The translations under genes were made by a program, and so were the position numbers. The notes under the pieces were generated by a model. That model saw only the letters and a list, made by a program, of their open reading frames with translations. It made no database searches and was not told where the DNA came from. 64,000 nt of DNA, taken from the NCBI GenBank assembly GCA_040397545.1, contig JBBAVV010000002.1:1632-65631 (forward strand), in the 5' to 3' direction. Each line of letters begins with the position of its first letter. Position 1 is the stretch's first letter. Below, one piece after another: positions 14,679-44,720 of this stretch. Source of the DNA: Pirellulales bacterium. GTDB lineage: Bacteria; Planctomycetota; Planctomycetia; Pirellulales; UBA1268.

Positions 14679-14721
14679 CGGGTGCCCCTTGCCAAAAAGA
14701 CGAACCTCGGCGACGTCTCCG

Positions 14722-25961: not shown

Positions 25962-25964
25962 CGC

Positions 25965-29149: not shown

Positions 29150-29420
29150 TGCGCTCCAGCTCGGCCCGCGTGAGCGAGTGGCCGCGGGAGGATGGCACGA
29201 CAGCCCGCATCGTGCAACTCGTCGTCGCCGACTGTGGCCGCACCGTCGACGAGTGGAAGCTCCTCCCCGGTCGCGAGAATCACCTCTTCGATGGCTGGGT
29301 GATGGCGACCGTGGCCGCCAGCGCCGCGGGGATCACCGCGGTCGGGGCGGAGCCGTCGCCGGAGCGGCGGCGAAAGCGGGTGAAGGTGCCGAAGGCATGG
29401 GCGTTGCGGAAGACGATCAC
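29150..29420 (+). pseudogene. GpA-type phage terminase large-subunit remnant, copy A
   Basis: ..EWPREDGTTARIVQLVVADCGRTVDEWKLLPGRENHLFDGWVMATVAASAAGITAVGAEPSPERRRKRVKVPK. Only the last ~80 codons survive, with internal deletions relative to copy B. Confidence 0.6.
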
Positions 29421-29691
29421 GGTCAAGCAGGCCGAGTGGCGACGGAGCGGCCGCGGCGATTCGATCCGCAACAGTTCGGGCCAGCCCCACCATCACTCTC
29501 CTCACGGAAGGTCCTTCCTGCCAATCCCGACCGGGCTGTGGTATGGCTGCCTGTTTCATCGCTTTTGGGGTCTTCAGCCGCTTGCGAACCGAGAGGCGAT
29601 TTGAAATACTGTCGACCGGGAGAGATTTTTTGAGGTCGATGGTTCCGAATGACCATCGGCTCTCGCTTCACACGCAGGAGTTCCGCCCCCG

Positions 29692-30414
29692 ATGAATCGC
29701 TTCGTTCGATCTTTTGCTCATGTGGTCATCGCCACCCTCGCCGCAGTCGCTGCCGCCCAGGCTGAGGCAACGCAATTGGTAATCTCTGGATCGGCGAATT
29801 TTCCCACGAGTTTCACCGCATTCACTGATAGTGTGAGCACGGCGTATCTCTACTTCGATAACAGCGGCGTGGCGTCTGCCCCCATGACCCCGTTCAACGC
29901 ATCGCTTGGAACGCTCGACAAGGTCAACGTTGATTGGGATTTCGGTGGGTCGTTCAACGGCACCACCGGCAGTAGCGGCGGCGGCGCGGGTATTGGTTTT
30001 GGAGGATCCATGTATGTGAACTCGATCTCGTATGCCGGGAACGGGGGTGGAAATGGAATTGATGGGATTGCACCAAGCACACTGTTTTCGTTCACGGTGT
30101 CCAACGTCGCTACCCACAATGAGTTCCTTTCCTCGGAGGCCGGCGTGAGCTACAGTTCAGCGATTTGGGCCGCTTTTACCGGCGTTTCTCCGTATACCGT
30201 CTCTCTCGATTCCGGAACGGGGTCTTATGGTTCGTACGACGGAGTCGCCAGTGGCACGATGACCACCTACCGAAATGTGATCGTGTCATACACATACACA
30301 CCGTCCGCAGTCCCTGAGATAGAGCCCGCTACTGGCTCGAGCGACCTCTCGCTCGTCGCTGGTGTGCTCGCGATGATCGAGCAGCGGCGTCGGCGTGCCA
30401 CGCTCGCAACTTAA
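29692..30414 (+). CDS. secreted protein with PEP-CTERM-like anchor (cargo A)
   Basis: Signal peptide MNRFVRSFAHVVIATLAAVAAAQA. C-terminal VPEIEPATGSSDLSLVAGVLAMIEQRRRR. Confidence 0.75.
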   Translation: MNRFVRSFAHVVIATLAAVAAAQAEATQLVISGSANFPTSFTAFTDSVSTAYLYFDNSGVASAPMTPFNASLGTLDKVNVDWDFGGSFNGTTGSSGGGAGIGFGGSMYVNSISYAGNGGGNGIDGIAPSTLFSFTVSNVATHNEFLSSEAGVSYSSAIWAAFTGVSPYTVSLDSGTGSYGSYDGVASGTMTTYRNVIVSYTYTPSAVPEIEPATGSSDLSLVAGVLAMIEQRRRRATLAT

Positions 30415-30445
30415 TCGAGCAGACCTGTTGATCGCTGATCCACTC

Positions 30446-30486
30446 CCGGGCCGGGCATCGCAAGGTGCCCGGCCCGGTTTCTTTTT
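30446..30486 (+). terminator. rho-independent terminator
   Basis: Perfect 12-bp stem CCGGGCCGGGCA / TGCCCGGCCCGG with an 8-nt loop, followed by TTTCTTTTT. Lies 32 nt after the PEP-CTERM gene stop. Confidence 0.8.
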
Positions 30487-30614
30487 GGGGGCATAGGGTC
30501 GTGCGCGTTGAACGCATGCGCGATAGGTACGCCCCATCGAACCGGGAACGAGTCCCGATATCTCTCCGCCACACCCCCTGCGCGTTCATGCCTATCCCTA
30601 CAACAATCGGAGGC

Positions 30615-30830
30615 ATGAACAATCCAATCACCGTCAGCCGACCCCGTGTCGCCGAGATGATCGGCCGAAAGTCGGGCACGCTTCGAGCATGGAGTTCGCA
30701 GACTCCGCCCTGCGTCCACGTCCTCGACTTCGACGCCCTGGGAATCCGAAGCGAGATCCTGGCGGGCTTCGCCCTTCGACGCGGCGCCTGCAACAACTTC
30801 GGGCCCCTCTCTCCGCCGCGCGGGCCTTCC
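30615..30830 (+). pseudogene. deletion fusion: AlpA-like HTH N-terminus joined to an internal fragment of the HExxH-protein gene
   Basis: MNNPITVSRPRVAEMIGRKSGTLRAWSSQTPP matches the start of ORF 38946. It is followed directly by CVHVLDFDALGIRSEILAGFALRRG, which matches IHVVSFEALGIRNNILAGFILARG at residues ~93-116 of ORF 39163. Confidence 0.65.
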
Positions 30831-30979
30831 GACAGCCGCAGGATGGGCAGCCGATGGGTGATGGGGCCGGGCGCCGATTGGCGGCCGCTGTCCCGCATCG
30901 ATTTGGCCGTGATAGCAGGAGCACTTAGACTGCGATCGACTCGGTTGTCGCCGGGTACTCGTGCCGTGGAGCAGCAGCA

Positions 30980-31486
30980 ATGGGGGAGTACCGCATTCCT
31001 TTCGACGATGTGTTCTTGGTCGAGATCCTCGGTCGGCATCGCCGCACCAAGAAACGCCGCATGATCGCGATCAAGGGCTTCGTCGGATGTTTCCTCGTCT
31101 TTGCCGCCGTTTCGTCACTCATGCAGGGGTGGCCCGGCATGGCGGCCTTCTGGGTGTTTTTGGTCGTGGCAATACTTTTCTCGCATCGGATCGATTACTG
31201 GCTCGCCCAGCGGGCATTTCGTCGATCACCGTCATGCGGCAAAATCGTCACACTCACGGTAGGGCCGGAGGGAGTACACACCGTCTCGAACACCCACGAC
31301 GCGAAGGTGGCGTGGGCAGCGTACACCAGCGCCTCCATCTTTCCGGACGGCATGATGCTGTATCAGGGACCGGGTGTCTTTCAGTGGCTCCCCGACCGAT
31401 TGCTCGTATCGGGGACCCGAGCGGGTGCGGAATCGATCGTGCGAACGCAGATCAACGATGTTCGAGTTGTGCTTGCCGGAGGTTGA
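30980..31486 (+). CDS. YcxB-like membrane protein (168 aa)
   Basis: Two central TM helices (GFVGCFLVFAAVSSL, AAFWVFLVVAILF) followed by a small soluble domain. The topology is typical of the YcxB-like family. Confidence 0.5.
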   Translation: MGEYRIPFDDVFLVEILGRHRRTKKRRMIAIKGFVGCFLVFAAVSSLMQGWPGMAAFWVFLVVAILFSHRIDYWLAQRAFRRSPSCGKIVTLTVGPEGVHTVSNTHDAKVAWAAYTSASIFPDGMMLYQGPGVFQWLPDRLLVSGTRAGAESIVRTQINDVRVVLAGG

Positions 31487-31651
31487 GTCTCGTGCCCTGT
31501 CCCCTTTAACGGGGCCACGGTTGGAGCGAGAATCCGGCGTGATCGAGGCGTTGGGAGGGGCATCGATGCCACCCGGAAAGCGAGGCCAAGAGGTGGGGAG
31601 GCGGCTCCTCCGTCCACGTCGTGGCCTCTGGCACGCACCCGGAGCAACCCG

Positions 31652-32368
31652 GTGAGAACTTCACCGCCTCCAGCGCCAAGCTCAACCTTGCCGATAGCCA
31701 CCCCGGCGGGCCCGAAGCCACGCTCCAGGCCGGGTTCACGAAGCTGGTCGATAGGCTCCCCGGAGCGCGGTTGGCCGCGGGAAGATGACACCACGGCCCG
31801 CATCGAACAACTCGTCGTCGATGCCAACTGGGGCCAGTCAACGCAGACGGTTCGCGAGTTCTGCCGGCGGCACGCCTCGAGCGCCATCGTTCTCCCCAGC
31901 CACGGCCGCGGGATCGGGCCGACGGCTCGCCCCGTTCCCGACCGGAAGGAGAATCCCGGGGAACGGATCGGCCCCGGCTGGAAGATCGGCACCATCAGCG
32001 GCCAGCGCGGATTGCTCTTCGACGCGAATCAATGGAAGCGCTTTCTGGCTGCCCGGCTGAAGACTACGGTCGGCGATCCGGGCGCCCTCACCTTCCACCA
32101 GGCGGAGCATGGCATGCTCCTCGATCGCCTCACCTCCGAGCAGCCGATCGTCGACAGCGCCCGCGGCCGGACCGTCGACGAGTGGAAGCTCCGCCCCGGG
32201 CGGGGAAATCACCTCTTCGACTGCTGTGTGATGGCGACCGTCGCCGCCAGCGCCGCCGGGATCACCGTCGTCGGGGCGGAGCCGTCGCCGGAGCGACAGC
32301 GAAAGCGGGTGGAGATCCCGAAGGCGGGGGCGCCGAGGACGATCTCGACCATGCGTGGCAAGTGGTGA
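31652..32368 (+). pseudogene. GpA-type phage terminase large-subunit remnant, copy B (C-terminal ~240 codons)
   Basis: TARIEQLVVDANWGQSTQTVREFCRR.., LLFDANQWKRFLAARL, and TFHQAEHGMLLDRLTSEQP..GRTVDEWKLRPGRGNHLFDCCVMATVAASAAG. These fit the nuclease/C-terminal part of lambda GpA-like terminases. The ATPase domain is absent. Confidence 0.65.
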
Positions 32369-32769
32369 AGGCGGACGATCTACCCCGCGATCCCGTCGCC
32401 TACGGGGCGGCAAAACGTCAGGACAATCCGTCTCCGACGGGGTGACACGGGAATCGTGATCCCACTGGTCGTCAGAGTTGACAGGCTGGAACACTGCCGA
32501 TCTGAGGCAACTTGCTGTGCGAGCCAAGTGTCGTCGAGGAGTGATTGGCGTCCTGCAGCCAGCGGTTGAAGTCCTTCCGAAAGGGAAGTAAGAATGGAGG
32601 GAGTGCGTGTTGTGCGCTGGCTGTGCCTATCGGTTTCTTAAACAATCCCTATGACCAGCACCGACGTGAATAAAGCACGCCCACCGAAACGCAGGCGTGA
32701 TAACACAAAGACGTCAGTTGCACTAATGACTAAATAAATACGGCGTTGGGGTAGAGGAGATCACTTCGC

Positions 32770-33390
32770 ATGATGTCGAACAAGCCTTCATTCGTAGACA
32801 AAACGGCGGATCGCGGGGACTACTTGGTTGAGTGCTACCGCTCCGGCCATGAAGAGTTGATGTTTCGCGTGTCTCATCGCGACAACTGGCTCAAAATTCA
32901 AATGCTAGCGCAGACAACGTTTCTGGCGCTAGCGTTTGGCGTGGAAGTGGCGGGTGTCAAGGCGACATCCAGTATTCCAACGGCGCTGGCGCTTGCACTG
33001 CCGACGGCATTAACCTTGACCTGCCTTTACGTTGTCGAAGACCGACTAATCGGTTTGATTTCCCGATACCTCGGTCGGCTATCGGATCTCGAAGCCAGTT
33101 TGACGAAGAGCGACGCGGTTATCGAATACATCGGTTCCTCCTCAGAAATTCGCGAATATGCGAATAGCGTACTGCCATTTCGTGTGCTGGCACAAGTCGT
33201 TGCGTTCGCACTTGTTCCTACACTTCTCTCGACATATCGGTTTGCCAACGTTCCTGAATGGCCGTGGTACACAAAAGTAGAGATCGTGCTCAATGCAGCA
33301 TGCTTTGAGTTAATACTAACTCTATTGCACATGTCCTACAAAGAGCGCAAAACTTCCGGCCGTGCCAAGTTTACTAACCCAAGCGAATAG
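32770..33390 (+). CDS. multi-pass membrane protein of unknown family (low-GC cargo B)
   Basis: 206-aa ORF with 4-5 hydrophobic helices. Local GC is far below the flanks, including AT-rich flanking sequence 32600-32770. Confidence 0.6.
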   Translation: MMSNKPSFVDKTADRGDYLVECYRSGHEELMFRVSHRDNWLKIQMLAQTTFLALAFGVEVAGVKATSSIPTALALALPTALTLTCLYVVEDRLIGLISRYLGRLSDLEASLTKSDAVIEYIGSSSEIREYANSVLPFRVLAQVVAFALVPTLLSTYRFANVPEWPWYTKVEIVLNAACFELILTLLHMSYKERKTSGRAKFTNPSE

Positions 33391-33654
33391 ATCCGAAATA
33401 AGTTTCTGCTCAATAAAATGAAAAGCCCGAGTCGCGGCTCTGGCGATTTCTGAAATCAACGATAAGAGCCGCCGCCTGGTTCCGCTGGTCTTTAGGAGGC
33501 ACTGAAGCGGCGTGGTCGGCATGGGTGAGCATGAGTCGGCAGTCGTCCGCGGTCCGCCCCTGAGGTCTGGCAAGAGCCAGAAATCGCGACTTGTCCCGAT
33601 TCCTCTCTGCCACACCCCATTCGCCATTGGTCAGCATCCATACACATTCAGGGC

Positions 33655-33954
33655 ATGAACACACCACATGCCGTTCCACGATCCCTTCCTGCCGAGATGA
33701 TCGGCCGAAAACCTAGCACGCTGCGGTCCTGGGCTTCACAGACGCCGCCCCGCGGACCCCGCCCCGTCAAGACCGGACCGACGCAGCAGGCCCGCACGTT
33801 CTACCCCGTGGTCGAGATCCCCGACTGGCTCGCCGATCCCGTGGCCTACGAGGCACGAAGAAGGCCGCCCAATGCCCCCGTGGCTGACATCACATCCGAC
33901 GAGGCCCGGATGTCGCCGCGTACCGCTTTAGGCGGGGGTGGGGCTCGGAGCTGA
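33655..33954 (+). CDS. AlpA/excisionase-family HTH protein, copy B (3' end fused by an indel to the start of the next, deleted gene)
   Basis: MNTPHAVPRSLPAEMIGRKPSTLRSWASQTPPRGPRPVKTGPTQQARTFYPVVEIPDWLADPVAYEA parallels ORF 38946. It continues ..PVADITSDEA, the start of the ORF 39163 homologue, then homology is lost. Confidence 0.6.
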   Translation: MNTPHAVPRSLPAEMIGRKPSTLRSWASQTPPRGPRPVKTGPTQQARTFYPVVEIPDWLADPVAYEARRRPPNAPVADITSDEARMSPRTALGGGGARS

Positions 33955-34093
33955 TTGATGCAGCACGAGCAGTGCTCTTCACCCAGATGCTCCCGCGATC
34001 CCCAGGGCAAGCGCTCCCCGCGGGGCAATAAAGTTCGGTGGTGTTTTTTCCCAATCTGGTAGGGTCGACCCGCGCACGGGCGTCTGGGAGGGG

Positions 34094-34300
34094 ATGGAAG
34101 TCCCGGAACGGGCGCCAGGGAAACCCGACCTCGGAAGACGATTTGCCATCTCTTCGTTTGCGGAGCGGTGGAAAAGCGTAGGCCGATCGACGCAAAACGA
34201 TTCTGTTGTTCACACTGGCTCGATTCGCCAGTCGCGGCGAAACATTTTCGGCTGCCCGCCCGAACGGACTTTCGTCTGGTGTACTTTCCGAAAGGATCAT
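34094..34300 (+). repeat. ~200-bp repeat upstream of cargo gene, copy 1
   Basis: Aligns to 37555-37761 (GACCTCGGAAGACGA..GCCATC..CGGTGG..AGCGTAGGCCGATC..TCGATTCGCCAGTCGCG..GGACTTT..ACTTTCCGAA.GGATCA). The first part can be read as PDLGRRFAISSFAERWKSVGRSTQNDSVV. Confidence 0.75.
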
Positions 34301-34302
34301 TC

Positions 34303-35412
34303 ATGCGTTTACGACCATCATCGTTTCGGGGTGTGGCGATTGCGGCGGTGTTTCTTTTCGCCGCACTCGCCTCCGTTGTGCCTGCTCCTGCTCGTGCCGT
34401 CACGATCGACATGGTGAAGGTGGGCAACGCCGGCAACGCCGACGACACGGGGGGGAGCTATATTGGCCGCGTGGACTACAGCTATCAGATCAGCAAGTAC
34501 GACGTGACGATTGGTCAGTACACGGCGTTTCTGAATGCGGCCGATCCCACTGGCATCAATCCCAACGCTATCTACAACTCGGAAATGGGAACTCATACGA
34601 GCATCTCCGGTATCTCCTACGACTCGACCGCGTCAGACGGAGCGAAGTACAGCGCTATCGGCCCGGCTGGAACAGCGTATGGCCAGACCGCAGCAAACCG
34701 CCCGATCACGTACGTGAGTTGGTTTGACGCCGCGAGGTTTGCGAACTGGATGACGAACGGCCAGGGAGGCCCCGGGACCACGGAGACGGGGGCGTACAAT
34801 CTCTTGACCGCCGATCCCGGCGTGGCCCCGGCAAAGACTCCCGGCGCGGCGTTCTCCATCCCGACTGCAAACGAGTGGTACAAGGCGGCCTATTTTTCAC
34901 CGAACTACGGCGGGCCAGGCCTCGAGGGCTACTACAAGTACGCTACGCAGAGCGATGCCGGGCCGGGCAACATCATCGGGAGCGGGAACAACCAGGTAAA
35001 TTACCACGCTGTTGTATGGTCCGTGACGCAGCAGGGGGGGGATGTTGTTCCGAACCAAAATTACCTGACGGATGTGGGGGCGTTCACGAACAGTCCGTCA
35101 TATTATGGAACGTTCGACCAGAGCGGGAACGTGGATCAGTGGAATGATCTCGATGGTGCTGCCGGCACGGTTCGTGGCTTTCGGGGCGGCTATTGGTACA
35201 GCGGGCTTGCCGATTTCGTGTCCTCCTCCGGCAGCAACTCGCGCGATCCGTTTTACGAGCACGACGGCCTTGGTTTTCGTCTTGTCTCGGTGCCCGAGAT
35301 CGACCCGAGTCACTTTGGTCCCGCTCTGGCCCTGGTGCTCGGGTCGCTGGGGCTGCGTGAATATGGGCGGCAAGCCGGTCGTCGCCGAGCAGGTGCAAAG
35401 CGGGTTCGCTAG
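34303..35412 (+). CDS. formylglycine-generating-enzyme (SUMF1/FGE) fold protein with PEP-CTERM-like anchor
   Basis: Signal MRLRPSSFRGVAIAAVFLFAALASVVPAPARA. ISKYDVTIGQYTAFLN, RPITYVSWFDAARFANWM, and GFRGGYW..GLGFRLVSVPEIDPSHFGPALALVLGSLGL. Confidence 0.8.
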   Translation: MRLRPSSFRGVAIAAVFLFAALASVVPAPARAVTIDMVKVGNAGNADDTGGSYIGRVDYSYQISKYDVTIGQYTAFLNAADPTGINPNAIYNSEMGTHTSISGISYDSTASDGAKYSAIGPAGTAYGQTAANRPITYVSWFDAARFANWMTNGQGGPGTTETGAYNLLTADPGVAPAKTPGAAFSIPTANEWYKAAYFSPNYGGPGLEGYYKYATQSDAGPGNIIGSGNNQVNYHAVVWSVTQQGGDVVPNQNYLTDVGAFTNSPSYYGTFDQSGNVDQWNDLDGAAGTVRGFRGGYWYSGLADFVSSSGSNSRDPFYEHDGLGFRLVSVPEIDPSHFGPALALVLGSLGLREYGRQAGRRRAGAKRVR

Positions 35413-35419
35413 CGACAGG

Positions 35420-35532
35420 TCCAGTTTGACCGCCGCAACGAGTTCGGCGGGCTGGAGCACGCCGCACCGGTCGCCCCTGGGTGGCGAAGGACGGAGAAGG
35501 AGGGCAAGCAGGCGCGGAAGGCCGTGGGGTAG
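35420..35532 (+). pseudogene. 3' fragment of a thermonuclease (SNase-like) gene
   Basis: Reads IQFDRRNEFGGLEHAAPVAPGWRRTEKEGKQARKAVG*. It aligns to the last ~55 codons of 43885-44379 with an internal deletion. Confidence 0.6.
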
Positions 35533-35549
35533 GGGCGGTAGAACGCCGG

Positions 35550-35577
35550 CTGTGTGCCCGCCGGCGGGCTGTGTGCC
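35550..35577 (+). repeat. pair of direct 9-mers CTGTGTGCC (19-nt spacing) just after the nuclease fragment stop
   Basis: Positional analogue of the CTGTCTACA pair at 44394-44423. Confidence 0.5.
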
Positions 35578-35648
35578 CCCGACTCCAGCGCCTCGGGCTG
35601 CTCGTTGCACCGATCGATTCCAACCATCCTGATGCTTTTGGAGATCCG

Positions 35649-36434: not shown

Positions 36435-36553
36435 ACCCAGCCTGATCTACGTTCTGTCTGAAAACGGTTTGGTGAGTCGCCGCACGGGTCTGTCATTGGT
36501 GTTCCGACAAGGAGGTCGGCCATCAGGAAACGGCACGAAGTCAGGGACGATCA

Positions 36554-37554: not shown

Positions 37555-37761
37555 TTGATCCCCGAGCAGACGCCAGAGGCACCTGACCTCGGAAGACGAG
37601 TTGCCATCGAGTCGCTTGCGAAGCGGTGGCGAAGCGTAGGCCGATCCACGCTGAACGATTCAGTCGTCAAAGCGTGTCGATTCGCCAGTCGCGCCGAAAG
37701 CGTTTTTCGGCCGCTCGTCGTGGACGGACTTTGGTCCGTGTCTTACTTTCCGAAGGGATCA
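37555..37761 (+). repeat. ~200-bp repeat upstream of cargo gene, copy 2
   Basis: See 34094-34300. Here it is followed by a 16-codon stub (ATG 37806) and then the low-GC PEP-CTERM gene. Confidence 0.75.
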
Positions 37762-37950
37762 ACCGCACGGCATTTTCCCACCGGCGAACTCTTGCGGACC
37801 CATTCATGAATGCAACCCCAGAGCGTCCATCAAAACAATGCATTATCAATAGATGAGGGCCCAGGCGTTATGAAGAAAGCACTAGATCCAGGCTAGCAGT
37901 GCATAGTCAATCCGACAACGACTTAAGTGATCCCTGCCTCGGAAGAATTA

Positions 37951-38742
37951 ATGAAGACCAGAAGCCTACTGATCGCTATCGTTCTGTCAGGCAACGCCCT
38001 GCTTCCTAGTCATGCGAACAGCGAACCGTTGTACAATATCGATGGACTAGTCGTTAAATCAACGGACTACAACAAAGATGACATTCCTGTTTTTCTTAAA
38101 ATGCTGAGCGCCTTAACGGGCGGGGCCTATTCCATCGACGAAAAAACTGGCCAAGTGGCGATCACGGATGGTCATGCAGGAACAGGTAAGAGCGCCGATC
38201 GTATCAATACAATATTGGCAGACAAGACCCATACCACAACAATCTGGCTCGCACTGCCCGGACTGTTTGACAAGACAACGATTGGCCGATGGAGGGGCGG
38301 CGGAACCCAAAGCATCGATGTGCGTGATGTCGGGAAGTTCCCGACTGATGCGACAAAAGGGATTGACACCCAATCTAGTATTTTGATTCATGAGATCTAT
38401 GAAGCTTATCAAGGTGCGCTCGGAGCAACATCCGATGCGGCACACATTGACGGCGTCTCGGCCGGAAATGAGGAATTGAAGGAGAAGGGCGGAACTACAT
38501 ACGGGCAACGCTACGATTTATTGAACGGCAATGAAGGCCCTGACTATTTTGATGTGCCGTTTATCACTCCGTCGAAACCGGGCTCGGCCCCATACTACGA
38601 GAGAATATGGTTTATCGACTACGACGTGACTAAGGTTGAGGTTGCCCTCAAACCAATCCCCGAGCCCTCCACATACGCCATGGCCTTGACCGCCCTGGCC
38701 TGCGGTGGTTGGCAGATGTTCCGGCGTCGCCGATCGCGCTGA
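37951..38742 (+). CDS. secreted protein with PEP-CTERM anchor (low-GC cargo C)
   Basis: Signal MKTRSLLIAIVLSGNALLPSHA. C-terminal IPEPSTYAMALTALACGGWQMFRRRRSR. GC well below the flanks. Confidence 0.75.
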   Translation: MKTRSLLIAIVLSGNALLPSHANSEPLYNIDGLVVKSTDYNKDDIPVFLKMLSALTGGAYSIDEKTGQVAITDGHAGTGKSADRINTILADKTHTTTIWLALPGLFDKTTIGRWRGGGTQSIDVRDVGKFPTDATKGIDTQSSILIHEIYEAYQGALGATSDAAHIDGVSAGNEELKEKGGTTYGQRYDLLNGNEGPDYFDVPFITPSKPGSAPYYERIWFIDYDVTKVEVALKPIPEPSTYAMALTALACGGWQMFRRRRSR

Positions 38743-38780
38743 CCGCCGCCTGAACCCTCGACGACCAGTCTGATTCACAA

Positions 38781-38820
38781 CCGGGCCTGGCATCGCAAGG
38801 TGCTGGTCCGGTGTTTTTTG
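38781..38820 (+). terminator. rho-independent terminator (diverged copy of 30446-30486)
   Basis: Imperfect stem CCGGGCCTGGCA / TGCTGGTCCGG with the same CATCGCAAGG loop region, followed by TGTTTTTTG. Confidence 0.65.
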
Positions 38821-38945
38821 TGGGGATAGGGTCGTGCCCGTCGAAGACCGCCGCGACACTCACGGCCCCTAAATCGGGAATTGTCCCGATTCCTCTTTGC
38901 CACACCCCGTACGGCATTTGTGATCGTCCATGCACATTGAGTTGC

Positions 38946-39179
38946 ATGGACACACCGCATGCCGTTTCCCGAGCCCGTGCCGCCGAAATGATCGGCCGCA
39001 AGCCCGCCACCCTCCGAGCATGGGCCGCACAGAATCCCCAGCGCGGCCCCCGCCCCACGAAGACCGGGACGGCCCGGCAGGCCCGCACGCTCTACCCCGT
39101 GGACGAGATCCGCGAGTGGCTCGCCGATCCCGTGGCCTACGAAGCCCAACGGGGGCCGCCAAATGTCCCCCGTGGCTGA
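38946..39179 (+). CDS. AlpA/excisionase-family HTH protein, copy C (intact)
   Basis: MDTPHAVSRARAAEMIGRKPATLRAWAAQNPQRGPRPTKTGTARQARTLYPVDEIREWLADP. 77 aa. Overlaps the next gene by 17 nt. Confidence 0.7.
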   Translation: MDTPHAVSRARAAEMIGRKPATLRAWAAQNPQRGPRPTKTGTARQARTLYPVDEIREWLADPVAYEAQRGPPNVPRG

Positions 39180-40065
39180 CATCACCACCGATGAGGCCCT
39201 CGCCGTCGCCGTCGCAATCAAGCAGGCCCGCATGGCAAGCATGAATCCCTTCGCCGTCCGTCGGGCCGAGCGGTTGCTCTTCGAAGCTCCGGGGCGCAAG
39301 GCATACCGCCACAAGCTCGCCCGCACCGAGGCAGACGACGTTCAAGAGCTTCTCGACCGCCACGGCCGCGGAATCGTCGCCGGCGCCGCCGAGATGCTGC
39401 GAACCGTCGATCCGATCGCCCTCGAGTCCGCCCCAATTCATGTCGTCAGCTTCGAGGCTCTGGGAATCCGCAACAACATCCTGGCCGGCTTCATCCTCGC
39501 CCGCGGGAGCTTCTCGACCTTCTGTTCCCGGCTCCCGCCGGCCGCCCGGCCCGGTCCGGTCGTCGCGATCAACCTTCGGGGGATCGTCGCCGGGGCCGTT
39601 CGAGAGATGCCGGCCGACGCGACCGAAGAGGAGATCATCGCCGACGCTGCCCAACTCGTGCGCCTTGTCGCTCTCCACGAGTACGCGCACGTCGTCGAAT
39701 CGGCCGCCGCGGGCCAGCCGTTCGACGCCCCTCGTATCGGCACCAGCGCCGAGCGGCTGAAGGCCGTCGCCCTCGCGATCGCCAGCCCGCCGCCGATGGC
39801 GGTCACCATCGCCAACCACCCCGCCCCCTGGGTCCGGGCGCTGTTCCACGCATGGCAACGGAGCCCGGAGCGTAAGGCTCAACGCTGGCTCTGGAACCAG
39901 ATCGGGAGCTACTTCAGCGGCGAGCCCGGCCACCTGGTCGAAGCCCTCCGCGACGACCCAAGCGACGGGCGCGAGCCGATCGTCGACATCCTGCGGCGAC
40001 CGGCCCCAGACCGATTCACGACCTTGACGACCGAGAGATTCAAAGCATTGGAGGCCCAAGCATGA
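39163..40065 (+). CDS. hypothetical protein with HExxH motif (putative metallopeptidase)
   Basis: 300 aa. LVRLVALHEYAHVVESAAAG contains HEYAH. Lies immediately downstream of and overlapping the HTH gene. Confidence 0.65.
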   Translation: MSPVADITTDEALAVAVAIKQARMASMNPFAVRRAERLLFEAPGRKAYRHKLARTEADDVQELLDRHGRGIVAGAAEMLRTVDPIALESAPIHVVSFEALGIRNNILAGFILARGSFSTFCSRLPPAARPGPVVAINLRGIVAGAVREMPADATEEEIIADAAQLVRLVALHEYAHVVESAAAGQPFDAPRIGTSAERLKAVALAIASPPPMAVTIANHPAPWVRALFHAWQRSPERKAQRWLWNQIGSYFSGEPGHLVEALRDDPSDGREPIVDILRRPAPDRFTTLTTERFKALEAQA

Positions 40066-40841
40066 CGAGCACGATTGAAGCCCTTCGAGGGCGCGAGCAG
40101 AAGGCGGAGCGTGAAGCTCTGGAGCAGATCGCAGTAGCAGCCCGGACCGTCGCGGCCGGCGGGACAACCGACCTGGAAACGGTGAGCACCGCGCTTGCCA
40201 CGCTGGGAAAGTCATCCACCGACTTCGAGGCCGCCGTCGCTCTGGCTCGTCAGCGGGCGGAGTGGCTGGCTCTGGTCGAAAAGCTCCCCAGCGTCAAAAG
40301 CAATCTCGGGAAGGTCGAAACTGCCCTACAGATCGAGGGGGAGAAGTTCCTCGCCGCGCAGACCACCTACGCGGAGAAGGCGACCGTTCTCCGCTTCGAG
40401 CTCGACGAGGCCAACGCAGCCATCCGTGACGGCACCACCGCCCGCGAGCGGCTCCTCGATCCAAAGAATGTCCCAGGCGCGATCGCGGCGGAGTATGCGG
40501 AGGCCGTCGCCCAGGCTCGTGCCGCGGAATCTGCACGCCACAGGGCCGAGACTCAACTCGGCGAGATCGCCGGCAAGCTGTCGTCGGCAGCCGACTGGGT
40601 CAAGCGCATCAGCGGCCAGGAGGTGGAGGAGATCGACCCGAGCACCTGGAAAGCTCCCGAGGGCTCGCCCGACTGGCAGCGCGACGGCCACCACGGAGAG
40701 CTTGAATCCAAGCTCAAGAAGTGGCGTGAGATCGGCCGGGAGCGCGACGCAATCCGCGCCGCCCTCGCCACGGCCACCAAGGATTTCGCCACCTGGAAGA
40801 AGAAGCGCGACGGAATGGCTTCAGGAGTTCTCAAGTCATGA
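40062..40841 (+). CDS. coiled-coil hypothetical protein
   Basis: 259 aa, heptad-like and Ala/Glu/Lys/Arg-rich. ATGA start/stop overlap with both neighbours. Confidence 0.6.
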   Translation: MTSTIEALRGREQKAEREALEQIAVAARTVAAGGTTDLETVSTALATLGKSSTDFEAAVALARQRAEWLALVEKLPSVKSNLGKVETALQIEGEKFLAAQTTYAEKATVLRFELDEANAAIRDGTTARERLLDPKNVPGAIAAEYAEAVAQARAAESARHRAETQLGEIAGKLSSAADWVKRISGQEVEEIDPSTWKAPEGSPDWQRDGHHGELESKLKKWREIGRERDAIRAALATATKDFATWKKKRDGMASGVLKS

Positions 40842-41149
40842 GCACCGACCCGGCCGTTCAGGCCAAGTCAGACGCGACCCTCGCCGTGTTCGACATCCTC
40901 GCCGAGCGGGGCGCCCGCTCCGGCAAGGGATTCATGCGGACCGCCTTCACCCCGCAGGGGCGGCGGAAGGCGATCGCCGACGCGCTCGCCCCGTTCGTGC
41001 CGGCGGGGACCACCCGCGACAACGTCGAAGCGGTTTCCCAGGCGCTCGCCCGTCGGCTCCTCTCCGATCCGAACGTACGAGCGCAGATCGAGACGCGGGC
41101 AGCAACGCTGCCGGGAATCAGATCAACGAACGTGCCCCCGGGGAGGTAG
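40838..41149 (+). CDS. hypothetical protein (103 aa)
   Basis: 4-nt overlap with the upstream gene. Same strand in a compact operon. Confidence 0.5.
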   Translation: MSTDPAVQAKSDATLAVFDILAERGARSGKGFMRTAFTPQGRRKAIADALAPFVPAGTTRDNVEAVSQALARRLLSDPNVRAQIETRAATLPGIRSTNVPPGR

Positions 41150-41278
41150 CCCCCCGGTGGCAACGCGCCGCGGGCTCGCCGGGGATGGAGACTCCACCGG
41201 CGACCCGCGGGCAGCGGCGGCGGACACCCTCCGAGACAGCCCGCCCTCTCGGCATGATGCACCTCCAAGGAGGAAATC

Positions 41279-41545
41279 ATGCCAATCACGACTTCAATGG
41301 TGGCGACGGTTCGTTTAGGGGACGGCGCCACGCTCGCCGCATGGTGGGATGGCGGCCGCCACATCGGCATCCACATGGACTGCGGCCACGGCCCCGAGCC
41401 GGTCGACCGGTGGGACGTGTGGAATCCCGTTTGGAACTGCCCGCTGATCGAGCCGACGCGGGATTCCTTCGAGCGGTTCCTCCGGGGCCGGCTGGCGGAA
41501 CCGAGGATGCTCGCCGACCTGGTCGCCGCGGGAGGTGAGCGTTGA
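41279..41545 (+). CDS. hypothetical protein (88 aa)
   Basis: AGGAGGAAATC lies just upstream of the ATG. 4-nt overlap with the downstream ParB-like gene. Confidence 0.55.
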   Translation: MPITTSMVATVRLGDGATLAAWWDGGRHIGIHMDCGHGPEPVDRWDVWNPVWNCPLIEPTRDSFERFLRGRLAEPRMLADLVAAGGER

Positions 41546-42018
41546 GCAAAACCCGCGACGAACTGACGGAGACGAAGCTTATCTCGATCGACCTGATCGA
41601 GCGCGAGCCGCTGATCGAGGCGCGGATCGAGCCGGTCGACCGCCACATCGTTCAGGCGATTGTGTGGTCGATCCGCAACGGCATTTCCCCGCCGCCGATC
41701 CTGGTCTACGCCGTCGGTCCGAGGCGCGGGAAGCGGTTCCTCCTGGTCGATGGTCGCAACCGGATCGCCGCCACCCGCTCCATCGGCGAGAAGGAGATCA
41801 TGGCGGAGATCGTCGACGGGACGCTCGAACAGGCCGCATGGGCCGCCGCGGGCGTCAACGGCCGCCCGCAGCAGACCCGGAGCCCCGCGGAGGTGTGGCT
41901 GGCTGTGGAAATGGCAATCCGAGCCGCGCCCCGATCGGAAGACAAGCGAATCGCCGAGCATTGCCAATGTCCGCGGGCCACGGTTCGCGACGTTCGCCAG
42001 GCGCTCGCGGTACGATGA
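41542..42018 (+). CDS. ParB-like nuclease domain protein
   Basis: LISIDLIEREPLIEARIEPVD..IVQAIVWSIRNGISPPPILVY....FLLVDGRNRIAATRSIGEKEIMAEIVDG fits the ParB/Srx N-terminal fold. Confidence 0.7.
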   Translation: MSKTRDELTETKLISIDLIEREPLIEARIEPVDRHIVQAIVWSIRNGISPPPILVYAVGPRRGKRFLLVDGRNRIAATRSIGEKEIMAEIVDGTLEQAAWAAAGVNGRPQQTRSPAEVWLAVEMAIRAAPRSEDKRIAEHCQCPRATVRDVRQALAVR

Positions 42019-42322
42019 CCGCATGACCAACCCCGCCCTCCTCGCCGTTGCCCTGGTACTCGCTGAGCATCTCGACGGTGACGCCGAGAGTTGCTGACTG
42101 ACGCTCATCCCCGAACGCCCCGTGCCAATCAAGAAGGCCGCGACCGTCTGCTAAGAGTGCCCGCGCAACATCCGGGGAACGTTCTCGTGCGTGCACGGGT
42201 GACGGACTCGCGCAAAGCGCACAAACTGGCTCGTCCCGACCTGTCACCGAAAGTGACGTTTGCATCGACCCGCGCATGCTGTTCCGGTTCGCGGGCTGCG
42301 GAGATTTCGCGACCGAACCTAC

Positions 42323-42751
42323 TTATTCTTGGACCTTAACGCTGCCCTTTTCGAAAGGCGGTTTTTGCTGTAGCCGCCGCATCCGAGCTAATGCTGCACG
42401 ATTGAAACGGAAGAACCGATCACGAGAAGGAGAACCGCCCTGAGGAATGGCCATTACCTTGACCAATCTATCACCGACGAGAAGCAAAACGTCTCCAGCT
42501 TCAGAGATAGTTACTATCGATGACTTGCCTTCAGCCGTCAGCGAAGTCACAGAACCGCCGGACTCCGGCCGACTCTCGCCAGGGGGCAATGATCTGCCGG
42601 AGATCGGCGTCGAAAGCCTTGTCGAACATGAAGGAACATATTCGCCGCGCCCCGCTCTAAGCCGTGCCGAGATGAGATTCTGAATGTCTTGACTGATCTT
42701 GGGGCCGATGAAAATCGAACCGGGCAAAGAGTCGCCGGTTTTGGCGGGCAT
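42323..42751 (-). CDS. hypothetical protein (142 aa), weakly supported
   Basis: Co-directional ORF 55 nt downstream of the TM-GAF-like gene inside the low-GC island. No family signal. A competing plus-strand ORF (42447-42683) exists. Confidence 0.3.
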   Translation of the reverse strand: MPAKTGDSLPGSIFIGPKISQDIQNLISARLRAGRGEYVPSCSTRLSTPISGRSLPPGESRPESGGSVTSLTAEGKSSIVTISEAGDVLLLVGDRLVKVMAIPQGGSPSRDRFFRFNRAALARMRRLQQKPPFEKGSVKVQE

Positions 42752-42805
42752 GATGCACCTCGGGGCTCACTTGAGGAATGTGGGGGGTGAAACTGCGCGG
42801 CGGAC

Positions 42806-43615
42806 CTAAGTTCTGGCAAGGCTGGAAGCAAACGAAGTCGCACAAATCGCAACCGTATCGACTGCGGATTGGGAGAAGTAGTTCTCGTCCGAAGATTCAA
42901 AGTAAAGCACAGCGCAAGGGTTGTCTGCTGGATTGTCCCCGTCTTGGATCGCCAAGGCAAGAAAACTCCTTGCCGATGGATTCACGCGACGCAGGACATC
43001 TGGCGGCATGCTGTAGTTTTGAGTCAACACGCGGTGCCATTCGCTGGATGGGGTCGTCACTGAATTCGTGACCAGTACCGGACTTTGAGGATTCCGAAAC
43101 GCCGCACCTACAACACCAACGCTGAACGGTATTCTTTGCCCGAAACAGTCGTCCTCGACACGCCCATGGTACTTGTGGCCAACGTAGTCTGTTACCTGCT
43201 CGAGAACCGTTTGGCCTTTATGCTGAACGGGCTTGTAGACGCACCCGCATAGCTCAGGATCTTGAGAGTCCGGCAAGCCCACGCGTACCAAAGCATCGAT
43301 GGTGAAAATCAAGCCCGCCTCGTTGGCCATTTTCCATCCTCGGTGCAGTCCGATCACCTCATGGCTCAGAGTGGTGAACTTCAGCCAGCCTAGAATAATG
43401 GTAATGACGCACGTTGTGACTATGCCCCAGAAACTAAGGGTCTCGTTCCATGGTTTCGGTGGACCACCGAACGGGTAATATCGAAACGCGGTGGCAAACG
43501 CGGCCAGCGAGGCACTCCACGTCAAAAGCGCCTCGTAGATGGATGGCCTTCTAAACCAATCGGACAAAGTCAAGGCGGCGGAAGCCTTAAAGCTCGTATC
43601 TGCCATCGACACCAT
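42806..43615 (-). CDS. membrane-anchored protein with C-terminal GAF-like domain (low-GC island)
   Basis: Two N-terminal TM helices (LLTWSASLAAFATAF, FWGIVTTCVITIILGWL). The C-terminus carries RIPFSVGVVGAAFRNPQSPVLV .. ARSFLALAI..NPCAVLYFESSDENYF, a GAF-like pattern. Confidence 0.65.
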   Translation of the reverse strand: MVSMADTSFKASAALTLSDWFRRPSIYEALLTWSASLAAFATAFRYYPFGGPPKPWNETLSFWGIVTTCVITIILGWLKFTTLSHEVIGLHRGWKMANEAGLIFTIDALVRVGLPDSQDPELCGCVYKPVQHKGQTVLEQVTDYVGHKYHGRVEDDCFGQRIPFSVGVVGAAFRNPQSPVLVTNSVTTPSSEWHRVLTQNYSMPPDVLRRVNPSARSFLALAIQDGDNPADNPCAVLYFESSDENYFSQSAVDTVAICATSFASSLART

Positions 43616-43884
43616 CCAAACAGCTTGTCGGAGTGTAACGTGATGACCTGCTTGGGGGGACAGGCGTGCCCCCTACGCCAAGAAGTCTATTGAAGATCCT
43701 CAGAATGTGCCAATAGAGGCGTCAAGTGCGTCCGATTCCGACGATTTCGGCCAATGGCCTAGAAATGTGGCCGGCGTCTGAAACCGCCGGTTCCGTAAAA
43801 TCGCGGGAGATTCGTGATTTTGCTTGATCGTCCACCCGTCGCGGCTTCTCGCTGATACCCAAATGATCCGCCCCTTCATCGTAG

Positions 43885-44379
43885 GCTCCTACTCTGTGTC
43901 ATAACCGCACAGGCCGTCGCCGCGCCACGGCCAAAGTCACGGGCACGGTCGTCAGCGTCAACGGCGCGGACACCGTAAACGCAAGGACCGACGACGGCCA
44001 GACGCTCAAGGTCCGGCTCCACGGCATCGCCGCCCCGGAGGCCGTGCAGGCCTTCGGCAACGTCTCAAAACAGGCCCTCGGCGATCTGATCGCCGGCAAG
44101 ACCGTGTCGGTGGAGGAGGTAGACCGCGACCGCTACGGGCGGGTGGTCGGGCGGGTGACGATCGGCGGGAAGCTGGTCAACGCCGAGCAGGTTCGTGCCG
44201 GGCTGGCATGGCAATACATCCAGTTCGACCGGCGAAACGAGTTCGGCGCCCTCGAGGACGACGCCCGCAGGCACCGCCGCGGGTTGTGGGCCGACGCCGC
44301 CCCGGTCGCCCCGTGGGAGTGGCGGAGGACGGAAAAGGACCGCAAGACGGCCCGGAACGCCGCTGGGGTGGGCCGGTAG
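43885..44379 (+). pseudogene. thermonuclease (staphylococcal-nuclease-like), 5'-truncated
   Basis: ..KVTGTVVSVNGADTVNARTDDGQTLKVRLHGIAAPE..QAFG..DRDRYGRVVGRV..GLAWQY..ARRHRRGLWA. The frame opens at a TAG at 43882-43884, exactly where the low-GC island ends. No signal peptide. The first usable start codon (GTG 44044) falls inside the domain. Confidence 0.65.
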
Positions 44380-44393
44380 GTGAGCGCTGCGGC

Positions 44394-44423
44394 CTGTCTA
44401 CACTGGCGACCAGTCTGTCTACA
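44394..44423 (+). repeat. pair of direct 9-mers CTGTCTACA (21-nt spacing) 15 nt after the nuclease stop
   Basis: Exact copies at 44394-44402 and 44415-44423. Inverted partners at 44600-44620. Confidence 0.7.
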
Positions 44424-44599
44424 TGGCCCTCCGATCCTGAACGCCAGCGATCTCCCTCCAGTCCGAGCGACACGAGCGCCGATTCCCACGACGGGGAAGG
44501 CTGGATATACTCCGCGTTCCCGCAGGTTTTTCGGCCGAAACGCGGCTGTTTCATGGTCCGGGTTAGCTCCCCAAACGGAGCGACCAAATCCGGTTTCGA

Positions 44600-44620
44600 T
44601 GTAGACAGCAATGTAGACAG
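44600..44620 (+). repeat. pair of 9-mers TGTAGACAG (inverted copies of CTGTCTACA) 19 nt upstream of the tRNA
   Basis: Exact copies at 44600-44608 and 44612-44620. Confidence 0.7.
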
Positions 44621-44638
44621 CCCGAAAAAAGCCTGTTT

Positions 44639-44720
44639 GGAGGGTAAGCGAATGGTTAGCGGCCACACTGGAAATGTGGTGCCGGGAAACCGGTTGTGGG
44701 TTCGAATCCCATGCCCTCCG
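44639..44720 (+). tRNA. tRNA-Ser(GGA)-like gene, class II, with a weak D-stem
   Basis: Acceptor GGAGGGT/GCCCTCC. Anticodon stem CCACA/TGTGG with loop CTGGAAA (anticodon GGA). Long variable arm CCGG-GAAA-CCGG. T-arm GTGGG-TTCGAAT-CCCAT. The D-arm GCGAATGGTTAGCG pairs poorly in the canonical register, and position 8 is A. Confidence 0.65.

Follow-up and report, generated by a model that had tools for sequence, protein, structure and literature searches.

Decayed tandem copies of a probable satellite-like integrative element beside a tRNA-Ser gene in a Pirellulales bacterium

Short open reading frames (ORFs) that resemble the 3' end of a phage terminase gene recur in a stretch of 64,000 nucleotides from a Pirellulales bacterium (contig JBBAVV010000002.1, positions 1,632 to 65,631; the whole of this stretch is called the window below), where they lie in an array of repeats next to a gene for tRNA-Ser. 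What kind of element left these repeats, and how did several copies of it come to lie at one place? An original prediction, made from the letters alone, saw three differently decayed copies of a phage- or satellite-like element and left the element type unclear. Our analysis suggests that the array, from 29.15 to 44.62 kb of the window, probably consists of at least four right-hand partial copies (A, B, B', and C) of a family of small integrative elements of Planctomycetota, the intact form of which would be a phage satellite.

Repeats and terminase remnants in the window

We compared the window with itself by ungapped and gapped blastn. Every repeat listed in the original prediction was recovered in the same order, as collinear blocks of 72-89% identity (E = 1e-15 to 1e-110), and a tblastx self-comparison yielded only noise beyond the blastn result. 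The 3' ends of three terminase copies (29219-29445, 32148-32371, and 37134-37332) are 82-89% identical to one another (E = 1e-54 to 1e-110), and a second block in the terminase region pairs 31593-31709 with 36955-37071. A helix-turn-helix (HTH) gene and the box upstream of it recur at 30435-30714, 33581-33907, and 38770-39199 with 72-80% identity. In copy A, the start of the HTH gene was predicted to be fused to an internal piece of the gene for a protein with an HExxH motif, and indeed 30717-30770 pairs with 39439-39492; in copy B, homology was predicted to end about 30 nt into the HExxH gene, and it ends after 36 nt, at 33907. Likewise, the 3' end of a nuclease gene occurs twice (35340-35541 pairs with 44140-44379). 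The count of three copies, in contrast, was too low, since a fourth partial unit, B', is made up of a post-terminase leader, an FGE-sulfatase-like cargo gene, a nuclease 3' end, and a pair of short words that are described below. Its leader block (34101-34299) is 78% identical to 37559-37761, the ~200-nt leader that follows the copy C terminase.

The array is no assembly artefact, and it is inherited. It is present in the independent assemblies L001-L008, which are 95-98% identical to the window and have the same units with insertions and deletions. A syntenic contig, L016, has a shorter array between the same flanks, namely a 279-residue ORF on the left (28180-29019) and tRNA-Ser with an ABC-F gene on the right, and shares the left array boundary, which lies at 29149 in the window. 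The window has a G+C content of 67% and carries planctomycete hallmark genes (PSCyt2/PSD1, DUF1559 with an N-terminal methylation motif, and PEP-CTERM proteins); from ~25 to 44.6 kb, its G+C content drops from ~0.70 to 0.54-0.65. L016 (CALQRA010000036.1) is labelled Candidatus Kuenenia stuttgartiensis, yet its G+C content is 67% and it is 90-94% identical to the window. Kuenenia genomes have a G+C content of ~41%, and the contig is probably mis-binned under that label.

To what protein do the short terminase pieces belong? The predicted assignment to GpA-type terminases holds for all three. The copy B ORF (31652-32368) matches GpA_nuclease (PF20454; E = 7.8e-19) over profile positions 130-290 of 294, copy C is recognised through its undeleted form, P0003 (below), and copy A is assigned to terminase solely through its 82-83% nucleotide identity to B and C. 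We mapped the remnants on the full-length, 734-residue large terminase subunit (TerL) encoded by a related contig, L018. The unit A remnant corresponds to TerL codons ~534-550 and 661-728, that of unit B to codons ~480-733, and that of unit C to codons 258-367, 462-517, and 643-735, with the predicted in-frame TGA at 37169-37171. With starts at codons 258, 480, and 534, all three copies lack the N-terminal packaging ATPase with its Walker A and Walker B motifs, as the original prediction had stated. P0003, a 392-residue ORF in L003, is the copy C terminase without the deletion of codons 518-642 and matches phrog_15, terminase large subunit (7.9e-23); relative to it, the window copy has an extra deletion of ~370 nt and the stop codon. 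The L003 orthologue of copy B is called as an ORF of only 84 residues. Remnants at other loci start at codons 338 and 584 (L016), 588 (L011), 607 (L014), 606 (L117), and 391 (L135), and several of the remnants also carry internal deletions. A site-specific truncation of TerL, by an attachment site (attP) inside the gene or by a terminase-targeting element, was considered and is refuted by nine differing end points between codons 258 and 607. Because the truncation codons differ across the nine remnants, they point to independent deletions, and the short pieces are best read as pseudogene fragments of a large terminase of ~700 residues.

That the short ORFs are instead functional, stand-alone GpA-type nucleases or the halves of a split terminase is extremely improbable, even though none of the 133 proteins close to the copy B ORF has a listed domain other than PF20454 or more than 416 residues, some of them are encoded on megabase contigs, and NCBI calls some homologues 'terminase gpA endonuclease subunit'. 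Full-length terminases of this lineage, with ~700 residues, also show PF20454 alone, and the Pfam Terminase_GpA ATPase model has no match even in the full-length L018 TerL, the ATPase half of which resembles the terminases of Mu-like phages at 26-29% identity. Since Pfam sees just the nuclease domain of this TerL, every homologue lists PF20454 alone, and the domain pattern is uninformative. Furthermore, many of the short homologues are cut off by contigs of ~1.3 kb, the window pieces start at three different codons, two of them are internally deleted and one has an in-frame stop, and the 84 residues of the L003 orthologue also speak against a conserved nuclease.

Intact relatives and growth of the array

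The HExxH protein encoded downstream of the HTH gene is rare and served as a marker to find relatives of the element in other genomes. Intact-type relatives are 16-17 kb long, are inserted at the 3' ends of tRNA genes, and have perfect 44-bp repeats at their two ends. From left to right, they carry genes for a tyrosine integrase, regulators, a replicase, and TerL, then a variable cargo slot, then genes for HTH_17, the HExxH protein, and a helical protein, and finally small ORFs; the replicase of the family is either an AAA_25/DnaB-like helicase or a RepB_primase with DUF3987. The original prediction had proposed a search of relatives for an intact copy with an integrase and a full terminase, and two relatives, L044 and L048, have both an integrase and a full TerL gene. 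The L044 element spans 16.9 kb between perfect 44-bp repeats of a tRNA-Val 3' end (2867-2910 and 19746-19789) and encodes an integrase, AAA_25, TerL, two cargo proteins, HTH_17, and homologues of the HExxH and helical proteins. L048, a 16.25-kb contig with a tRNA-like sequence at its end, encodes an integrase, a primase with DUF3987, TerL, HTH, and HExxH and helical homologues, the operon being present at 25-50% identity. The contig of P0138 (17.7 kb) encodes TatA/B, a 422-residue ORF, DUF1580, a methyltransferase, DUF4326, HTH_17, and an AAA_25 helicase in its left part, and in its right part ORFs of 222 and 99 residues, TerL, HTH, HExxH, the helical protein, two small ORFs, a 173-residue ORF in the position of the window's ParB-like gene, and HTH_17; the 422-residue ORF has no Pfam match and sits where L044 has its integrase. 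In two IMG/VR contigs, L018 and L019, the HTH-HExxH pair lies directly 3' of a full-length, 734-residue TerL with Walker A and Walker B motifs, with zero or two cargo genes between the terminase and HTH genes. Using Pfam and PHROG, we found no portal or capsid gene in L044, L048, or the P0138 contig, and recognised no small terminase or capsid-morphogenesis gene in the window, L044, L048, or L018.

A 222-residue protein with an HKD-like motif (L018, 267-935; L019, 172-837; PHROG endonuclease, 1.3e-38) and a 99-residue ORF are both encoded 5' of TerL. These two are possibly packaging accessories and perhaps take the role of a small terminase.

The window's own variant of the element is found in L135, where the HExxH protein, the helical protein, and the 88-residue ORF are each 92% identical to those of the window. 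It lies at a tRNA-Pro(CGG) gene between perfect 44-bp repeats (6460-6503 and 15137-15180), with a 72-codon integrase stub right after the tRNA and one deletion that joins this stub to TerL codon 391. Given that L135 carries a window-type operon between tRNA attachment (att) repeats, the window unit is a member of the tRNA-integrating family. Loss of everything from the integrase through the ATPase half of TerL thus appears to be a recurrent fate of these elements. The relatives also correct the left end of the element, where the original prediction had placed a Zn-ribbon gene: none of the intact relatives has this gene ahead of TerL (it is absent from L018, L019, L044, L048, and the P0138 contig), and the real left half consists of the integrase, regulators, replicase, and TerL. 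The Zn-ribbon/terminase junction of the window (36434-36554), which is common to L001, L003, and L016, is a deletion scar.

Given that the intact form is 16-17 kb long, integrates at tRNA genes, lacks capsid genes, and encodes TerL, it is satellite-like rather than a defective prophage. The terminase lineage does otherwise occur in real phages. In ~42-kb phage contigs that encode the P0172 TerL (62-66% identical; 66% over the N-terminal 425 residues), portal and capsid genes follow the terminase, and among IMG/VR loci with a TerL of 36-47% identity, a portal gene follows TerL in 21 of 22 and a capsid gene is present in most. L018 and L019 are themselves listed in IMG/VR, and L044 has, in the cargo slot between terminase and HTH (12752-15280), a gene for an 842-residue tape-measure-like protein (PHROG, 2e-69), with no other tail gene. 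Nevertheless, we consider it very unlikely that the copies derive from an ordinary tailed prophage that lost its head and tail genes. The three relatives whose ends are defined or implied (L044, L048, and the P0138 contig) span only 16-17 kb and lack portal and capsid genes; the HTH-HExxH-helical operon follows TerL in the elements and in none of the true phages; and no HExxH homologue occurs in 50,697 phage records. No head, tail, or lysis module was found in the window, and none in L044 between the att repeats except the tape-measure-like gene.

For the satellite-like element, we propose the following mechanism. The tyrosine integrase of the intact element would insert it at the 3' end of a tRNA gene, and 44 bp would be duplicated in the process; the full order would be tRNA/attL, integrase, small regulators, replicase, (endonuclease and 99-residue ORF), TerL of ~700 residues, cargo, HTH_17, HExxH, helical protein, small ORFs, right-end module, and attR. 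The right-end module would be variable, the variant of the window being a ParB-like protein and a thermonuclease. As a satellite, the element would excise, replicate by its own replicase, and use its own TerL to load its DNA into the capsids of a helper phage, with the HTH-HExxH-helical operon controlling the helper or the capsid. Deletions that end at different points would then have stripped the integrase, the replicase, and the ATPase half of TerL from every copy in the window, leaving an immobile remainder of cargo genes (mostly for exosortase-sorted surface proteins, several under purifying selection) and the still-open HTH-to-ParB operon of copy C. The array itself would have grown as one variant after another arrived at the same site, and deletions and recombination between copies would then have reshaped it.

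A different origin, in which one relic was duplicated in place and the duplicates diverged, is unlikely in our view. It would agree with the lack of att scars between the units, with the vertical inheritance of the array in related strains, and with recombination between copies, which is evident from the 3' end of the copy C TerL (90% identical to copy B and just 86% identical to its own L003 orthologue). However, no two units share a cargo gene, the word types of the two right ends that survive differ, and independent intact elements vary in their cargo slot in the same way. The window paralogues also resemble elements elsewhere at least as closely as they resemble each other: in alignments of ~230 nt, in which the differences are small, HTH_C is closer to L016, L019, L017, L018, L011, and L014 (82-86%) than to HTH_B (80%), and HTH_B is closer to L018 (84%) than to HTH_C.

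Successive arrival of variants is in keeping with the comparison between the window and L016, in which synonymous divergence is 0.25-0.54 for the operon genes and 0.12-0.15 for the host flanks, and in which L016 has a 39%-identical allele in place of the window's HExxH gene. The divergence of the operon above that of the flanks and the swap of the HExxH gene suggest that the locus kept exchanging with incoming variants. Tandem remnants occur elsewhere as well: L011 has another attL-type palindrome beyond its attR, and in L014 pieces of a nuclease gene and of a terminase gene lie side by side. From these data we reasonably infer repeated integration at the tRNA-Ser site.

The right end and the tRNA-Ser gene

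The tRNA-Ser(GGA) gene is the only tRNA gene of the window (ARAGORN, Rfam), and its 5' half is exactly conserved in 84 metagenome contigs. The variable DNA of the array stops at 44620, 18 nt 5' of this gene. The original prediction had noted that the thermonuclease 3' end appears twice, each time followed by a pair of direct words. Both pairs are present (GGCTGTGTGCCC at 35548 and 35567; CTGTCTACA at 44394 and 44415), but the copy C nuclease is itself split, and the CTGTCTACA pair has an inverted partner, TGTAGACAG, at 44600 and 44612 with a spacing of 12 nt. The order at the right end of the window is thus nuclease stop codon, two CTGTCTACA words, ~60 nt, a promoter-like TTCCCA-17-TATACT (44483-44511), ~90 nt, two inverted TGTAGACAG words, 18 nt, and tRNA. 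The GGCTGTGTGCCC word type, which unit B' has in the interior of the array, forms the right end beside tRNA-Ser in L016, L117, and L122.

We surveyed the words in 24 of 80 metagenome loci with the same tRNA 5' half, together with the window and L016. Most of the surveyed loci that have the downstream flank on the contig contain the same ABC-F gene. TATACT lies ~105-125 nt 5' of the tRNA in all of them, and a tandem word pair lies at -45 to -20 in most. The sequence of the word varies between closely related strains, with at least seven types in the surveyed loci. Among loci that retain the nuclease tail, ten, which represent five word types, have a left pair that is reverse-complementary to the right pair. 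The type of word re-assorts with both the variable arm of the tRNA and the downstream flank, indicating that exchange breaks at or inside the conserved tRNA 5' half. Word pairs of ~10 nt were noted in the window (44394-44620), in L016 (11634-11812), and in L058, L062, L072, L078, L105, L116, L117, and L122.

Two readings of the words were rejected. An invertible promoter switch between the inverted words has no support, TATACT having the same orientation to the tRNA in 25 of 25 loci. The ParB-like, HTH, or HExxH protein as reader of the words is ruled out by the independence of word type from the identity of these proteins. The window and L062 have the same word, yet their ParB-like proteins are 52% and their HExxH proteins 38% identical; the window and L016 have different words, yet their ParB-like proteins are 90% identical.

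The elements in L044, L011, and L135 follow the 3' end of the tRNA gene that they target, and their integrase gene is adjacent to it. These elements have words of their own (ATACCCG in L044, CGTCCCGTTT in L135, and TCCCTGTTTG in L011), with inverted copies between the attL core and the integrase gene and, ~125-165 nt ahead of the attR core, two to four copies in direct orientation. These word sets look like arm-type sites of the integrase and are putatively assigned as such. In all elements with a defined left end, a palindrome, CCTGCCGAYGGTCGGCAG, lies ~35 nt after the attL core and 5' of the integrase gene (L011, 335-352 and 9567-9584; L044, 2944-2961; L048, 14-31; L135, 6536-6553). A 431-residue gene after attR in L011 was considered as an integrase and rejected. 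In L110, which is from another organism, an integrase that is 37-40% identical to the family integrases is encoded ~970 nt 3' of the same tRNA-Ser(GGA), which is the classical arrangement and opposite to that of the window.

What does the right end of the window represent? An element that enters from the 5' side of the tRNA and provides the promoter of this tRNA would account for it, as would a relic attP. As had been predicted, no integrase is present in the window: none was found among the scanned ORFs of the island and its flanks, and no sequence in the window is homologous to the integrases or replicases of the family. The idea of repeated integration at one site beside the tRNA stands insofar as the array is mobile in origin and related to phages, but the array lies on the unexpected side of the tRNA and shows no att remnants.

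Several points weigh against the satellite reading or limit its reach. All elements with defined ends are found 3' of the tRNA gene that they target, but the array of the window is on the 5' side of tRNA-Ser. We found no tRNA fragment, no Val or Pro att core, and no attL palindrome in the window, and in view of this lack of an att core, a duplicated tRNA segment, or a palindrome, integration at tRNA-Ser is not demonstrated. No intact copy of the window's variant was seen at the tRNA-Ser site, and no empty site was recognised among the 80 metagenome loci. We identified neither a small terminase nor a cos or pac site nor a determinant of capsid size, and satellite behaviour (helper induction and packaging) is read from gene content only. 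The tape-measure-like gene of L044 means that the absence of structural genes is not absolute. Finally, the ratio of nonsynonymous to synonymous substitution rates (dN/dS) is 0.2-0.5 for most remnant genes, a range that cannot tell present function from past function in active elements.

With these points in mind, we put forward a more specific version of the satellite reading as a tentative proposal whose chances we judge to be a little short of even. The elements would form an undescribed class of satellites of Planctomycetota that pirate the capsids of helpers by means of their own TerL, have no small terminase or capsid genes, and carry a unique HTH_17-HExxH-helical operon. In addition, the variant at this locus may insert 5' of tRNA-Ser and supply its promoter, flanked by co-varying protein-binding words, a mode that is undescribed for satellites.

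Gene content of the units and comparison with known systems

The features of the array and their coordinates are collected in Table 1.

Table 1. Features of the array and the adjoining tRNA gene, in window coordinates.
Feature	Position	Strand	Basis
Unit A TerL remnant	29149-29445	+	82-83% nucleotide identity to B and C; maps on L018 TerL
Unit A cargo, secreted, VPEID/PEP-CTERM-like sorting tail	29692-30414	+	Translation; same tail on cargo of L011, L016, L019
Unit A upstream box and first ~33 HTH codons (30615-30714), fused to internal HExxH piece (30717-30770)	30552-30770	+	Self-comparison, family alignment
YcxB-like membrane protein gene, between units A and B	30980-31486	+	Pfam YcxB, 2e-5
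Unit B TerL remnant, read as ORF 31652-32368	31593-32371	+	GpA_nuclease, 7.8e-19
Unit B cargo, 206-residue predicted membrane protein	32770-33390	+	No family match; 98.5-99.5% identical in L001, L003
Unit B upstream box, HTH gene (from 33655), first ~36 nt of HExxH gene	33581-33954	+	80.5% identity to 38871-39199; homology stops at 33907
Unit B' leader (34101-34299) and FGE-sulfatase-like cargo with VPEID-CTERM tail; 3' end enters nuclease fragment	34101-35412	+	FGE-sulfatase, 1.2e-17
Unit B' right end: thermonuclease 3' fragment, then two direct GGCTGTGTGCCC words (35548, 35567)	35340-35580	+	Self-comparison, word search
Zn-ribbon protein gene (ORF open from 35481)	35649-36434	+	Weak Zn-ribbon matches
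Unit C TerL remnant, in-frame TGA 37169-37171	36554-37357	+	Maps on L018 TerL
Unit C post-terminase leader and PEP-CTERM cargo gene (37927-38742)	37559-38742	+	Self-comparison, profile searches
Unit C upstream box and intact 77-residue HTH gene (38946-39179), AlpA/HTH_17-like	38871-39179	+	Sequence, family alignment
HExxH protein	39163-40065	+	Invariant motif in homologues
Long-helix (coiled-coil-like) protein (40062-40841) and small ORFs (40838-41149, 41279-41545)	40062-41545	+	AlphaFold2, homologues in same order
ParB/Srx-like N-terminal-domain protein	41542-42018	+	phrog_1033, 4.9e-13
Unit C split thermonuclease gene	42023-44379	+	SNase, 8.4e-19
Right-end module before tRNA	44394-44620	+	Words, promoter-like motif, strain comparison
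tRNA-Ser(GGA), intact; 5' end towards array	44639-44721	+	ARAGORN; Rfam tRNA, 37.7 bits

As predicted, only copy C keeps the overlapping operon downstream of the HTH gene, the start/stop overlaps between its ORF coordinates being 17, 4, 4, and 4 nt. The predicted AlpA-like identity of the HTH genes is supported less directly than their conserved box: the three copies of box and gene are plain in the self-comparison, but the match of the copy C protein to HTH_17 (PF12728; E = 0.0061, 17.2 bits) is under the Pfam cut-off of 27, and the copy B protein has no HTH_17 match in Pfam. The L044 homologue of the copy C protein (45% identical, E = 1.9e-12) has HTH_17 as its precomputed Pfam annotation, and the alignment of the HTH family across the elements is clear. 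The HTH gene of the window may thus be called AlpA/HTH_17-like, weakly by its own match and by way of the L044 homologue.

In the HExxH protein, H172, E173, H176, and H219 are invariant in 14 homologues. A word-indexed search found 17 homologues, and 68 clusters at 50% identity were found among 1.84 billion representatives. As a candidate zinc metallopeptidase, the protein has no match in Pfam, PHROG, NCBIfam, or PADLOC; its AlphaFold2 (AF2) model, with a predicted local distance difference test score (pLDDT) of 73.6, has no fold match in the PDB (best E = 1.1); and its profile gives a best E of 0.29 against PDB sequences, to one protease. Two allelic types of the HExxH gene, 38-45% identical, were observed (window versus L011, L014, L016, L017, L018, and L062) in operons that are otherwise 55-90% identical at the protein level, and this exchange looks like a swap of specificity or immunity type. 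For the 259-residue helical protein, AF2 gives helices of 80 and 47 residues with low confidence; the model was made from a single sequence and, with a predicted template modelling score of 0.37, is too poor for a fold search. Homologues of the helical protein and the small ORFs occur in the same order in L011, L014, L016, L044, L048, and L135. The ParB-like protein (41542-42018) matches phrog_1033, 'ParB-like partition protein' (4.9e-13), has no Pfam match at 0.01, and gives weak matches to sulfiredoxin in the PDB (E = 0.06-0.18). Given their position right after the terminase and their conservation down to 25% identity across the family, we conjecture that the HTH, HExxH, and helical genes are candidates for control of a helper phage or of its capsid.

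Copy C is itself decaying, with a broken terminase and with its nuclease split by foreign DNA. The start and signal peptide of the nuclease are encoded at 42023-42063 and its body, with an SNase (PF00565) match at 44044-44379 (8.4e-19), at 43885-44379. The intervening ~1.8 kb (42064-43884) are of low G+C content (0.56-0.58), carry a 269-residue ORF on the minus strand (42806-43615) without a family match, and have no counterpart in any fetched locus. The nuclease gene is uninterrupted in L014 and L062, and the second nuclease copy of the window is a 3' fragment only.

The products of cargo A, the FGE-like gene, and cargo C have PEP-CTERM or VPEID-CTERM sorting tails at their C-terminal ends, a terminator with a 14-bp stem lies 3' of cargo A (30446-30477), and the 206-residue cargo protein of unit B has no family match. 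For the YcxB-like gene, a dN/dS of 0.05-0.11 indicates strong purifying selection, and the gene, which lies between units A and B, is probably cargo. The dN/dS of the Zn-ribbon gene is 0.24-0.49.

Have the right-hand halves then been kept by selection as a module of benefit to the host, through surface cargo or through interference with helpers by the HTH-HExxH-helical-ParB operon? The same half survives at four sites with different deletion end points (tRNA-Ser, tRNA-Val in L011, tRNA-Pro in L135, and L014), the ORFs of the copy C operon are intact and overlapping, and the YcxB, cargo B, and FGE genes have dN/dS values of 0.05-0.32. We find this explanation doubtful nonetheless, as no PADLOC defence model matches, the operon is wholly deleted in L117 and truncated in units A and B, and selection that acted in the past, on active elements, may account for the dN/dS values.

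Some other repeats of the window lie outside the array. A direct repeat of 611 nt (90% identity; 263-870 and 2254-2864) falls within two paralogous ORFs (239-1624, 461 residues; 2110-3642, 510 residues) in a region of low G+C content (0.56), and neither ORF has a Pfam match. A weak direct repeat of 105 nt (70%; 25002-25106 and 25858-25962) marks the left edge of the low-G+C region that contains the array, and a near-perfect palindrome of 38 nt lies at 61746-61783.

Phages and their parasites in Planctomycetota are almost unknown, and full-text searches of the literature found no description of such elements in this phylum. An integrase, a replicase, and TerL without a capsid gene form a combination that lies outside the four best-described satellite families (PMC10085698), and if it is confirmed, stealing only the packaging motor would be a viable satellite strategy. 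The arrays place genes for exosortase-sorted surface proteins beside tRNA genes and thereby contribute to variation of the cell surface in these bacteria. In practical terms, many of the short 'terminase gpA endonuclease subunit' ORFs in planctomycete annotations are probably such relics, and the strain-specific, co-varying word pairs would offer a natural series of specificity swaps for whatever protein reads them.

How do the elements compare with known systems? Phage-inducible chromosomal islands (PICIs), the composition of which we take from PMC10085698, resemble the intact relatives in having a terminal integrase gene, a primase-replicase, a single packaging gene, cargo, a length of ~16-17 kb, no virion genes, and a fixed att site; the putative AlpA/HTH_17-like regulator of the relatives would be a further likeness. 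Unlike that of PICIs, the packaging gene of the relatives encodes a large terminase of ~700 residues, not a small terminase. Further differences are that no capsid-morphogenesis gene was recognised in the relatives, that their host phylum is Planctomycetota, and that the HTH-HExxH-helical operon after the terminase has no counterpart in Pfam, PHROG, or the 50,697 phage records; moreover, the window holds relics only. Among the four best-described satellite families, capsid-forming PICIs (cfPICIs) alone carry their own large terminase, and they also encode major capsid, portal, head-tail adaptor, and connector proteins (PMC10085698). The relatives likewise have TerL, but capsid, portal, and connector genes were undetected in L044, L048, and the P0138 contig.

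P4-like satellites are small elements with an integrase and a primase-helicase that have no capsid genes and integrate at tRNA sites. P4 uses the terminase and the cos site of its helper, and its genes sid, psu, and delta serve to size the capsid and control the helper. The relatives are alike in their integrase, their primase-helicase of the DUF3987 type (L048), their small size, their lack of capsid genes, and their tRNA site, but differ from P4 in carrying their own TerL.

For the formation of the array, the best precedent would be the stacking of tycheposons. These elements of Prochlorococcus have tyrosine recombinases, insert at tRNA genes, and stack successively, such that older copies are pushed inward and degenerate remnants with cargo are left (bioRxiv 10.1101/2020.12.28.424599). 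Tycheposons differ in their hallmark genes, and the window array lies 5' of the tRNA and has kept no partial tRNAs. Marine virion-encapsidated integrative mobile elements (VEIMEs) from environmental metagenomes are likewise small and integrative, with an integrase, a primase/helicase, and AlpA, and are mostly without capsid genes; they are reported with homologues of small terminases and motor-like ATPases, and their packaging in virions has been shown directly (bioRxiv 10.1101/2022.07.26.501625). In contrast, the present relatives have a large terminase of phage type, and packaging in virions is predicted for them.

The ~42-kb tailed phages (L045-L047) and the related loci L021-L042 have the same GpA-type nuclease domain in a TerL that is 62-66% (P0172) or 36-49% identical to that of the elements. 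In these phages, the terminase gene is followed by genes for the portal (Phage_portal_2), capsid, decoration, and head-tail joining proteins, whereas the element has cargo and the HTH-HExxH operon in that place. Such phages are likely the source of the element's TerL and may be regarded as candidate helpers. Taken as a whole, the gene content of the intact element appears to be most like that of a PICI or a P4-like satellite, but with a large terminase as its packaging gene.

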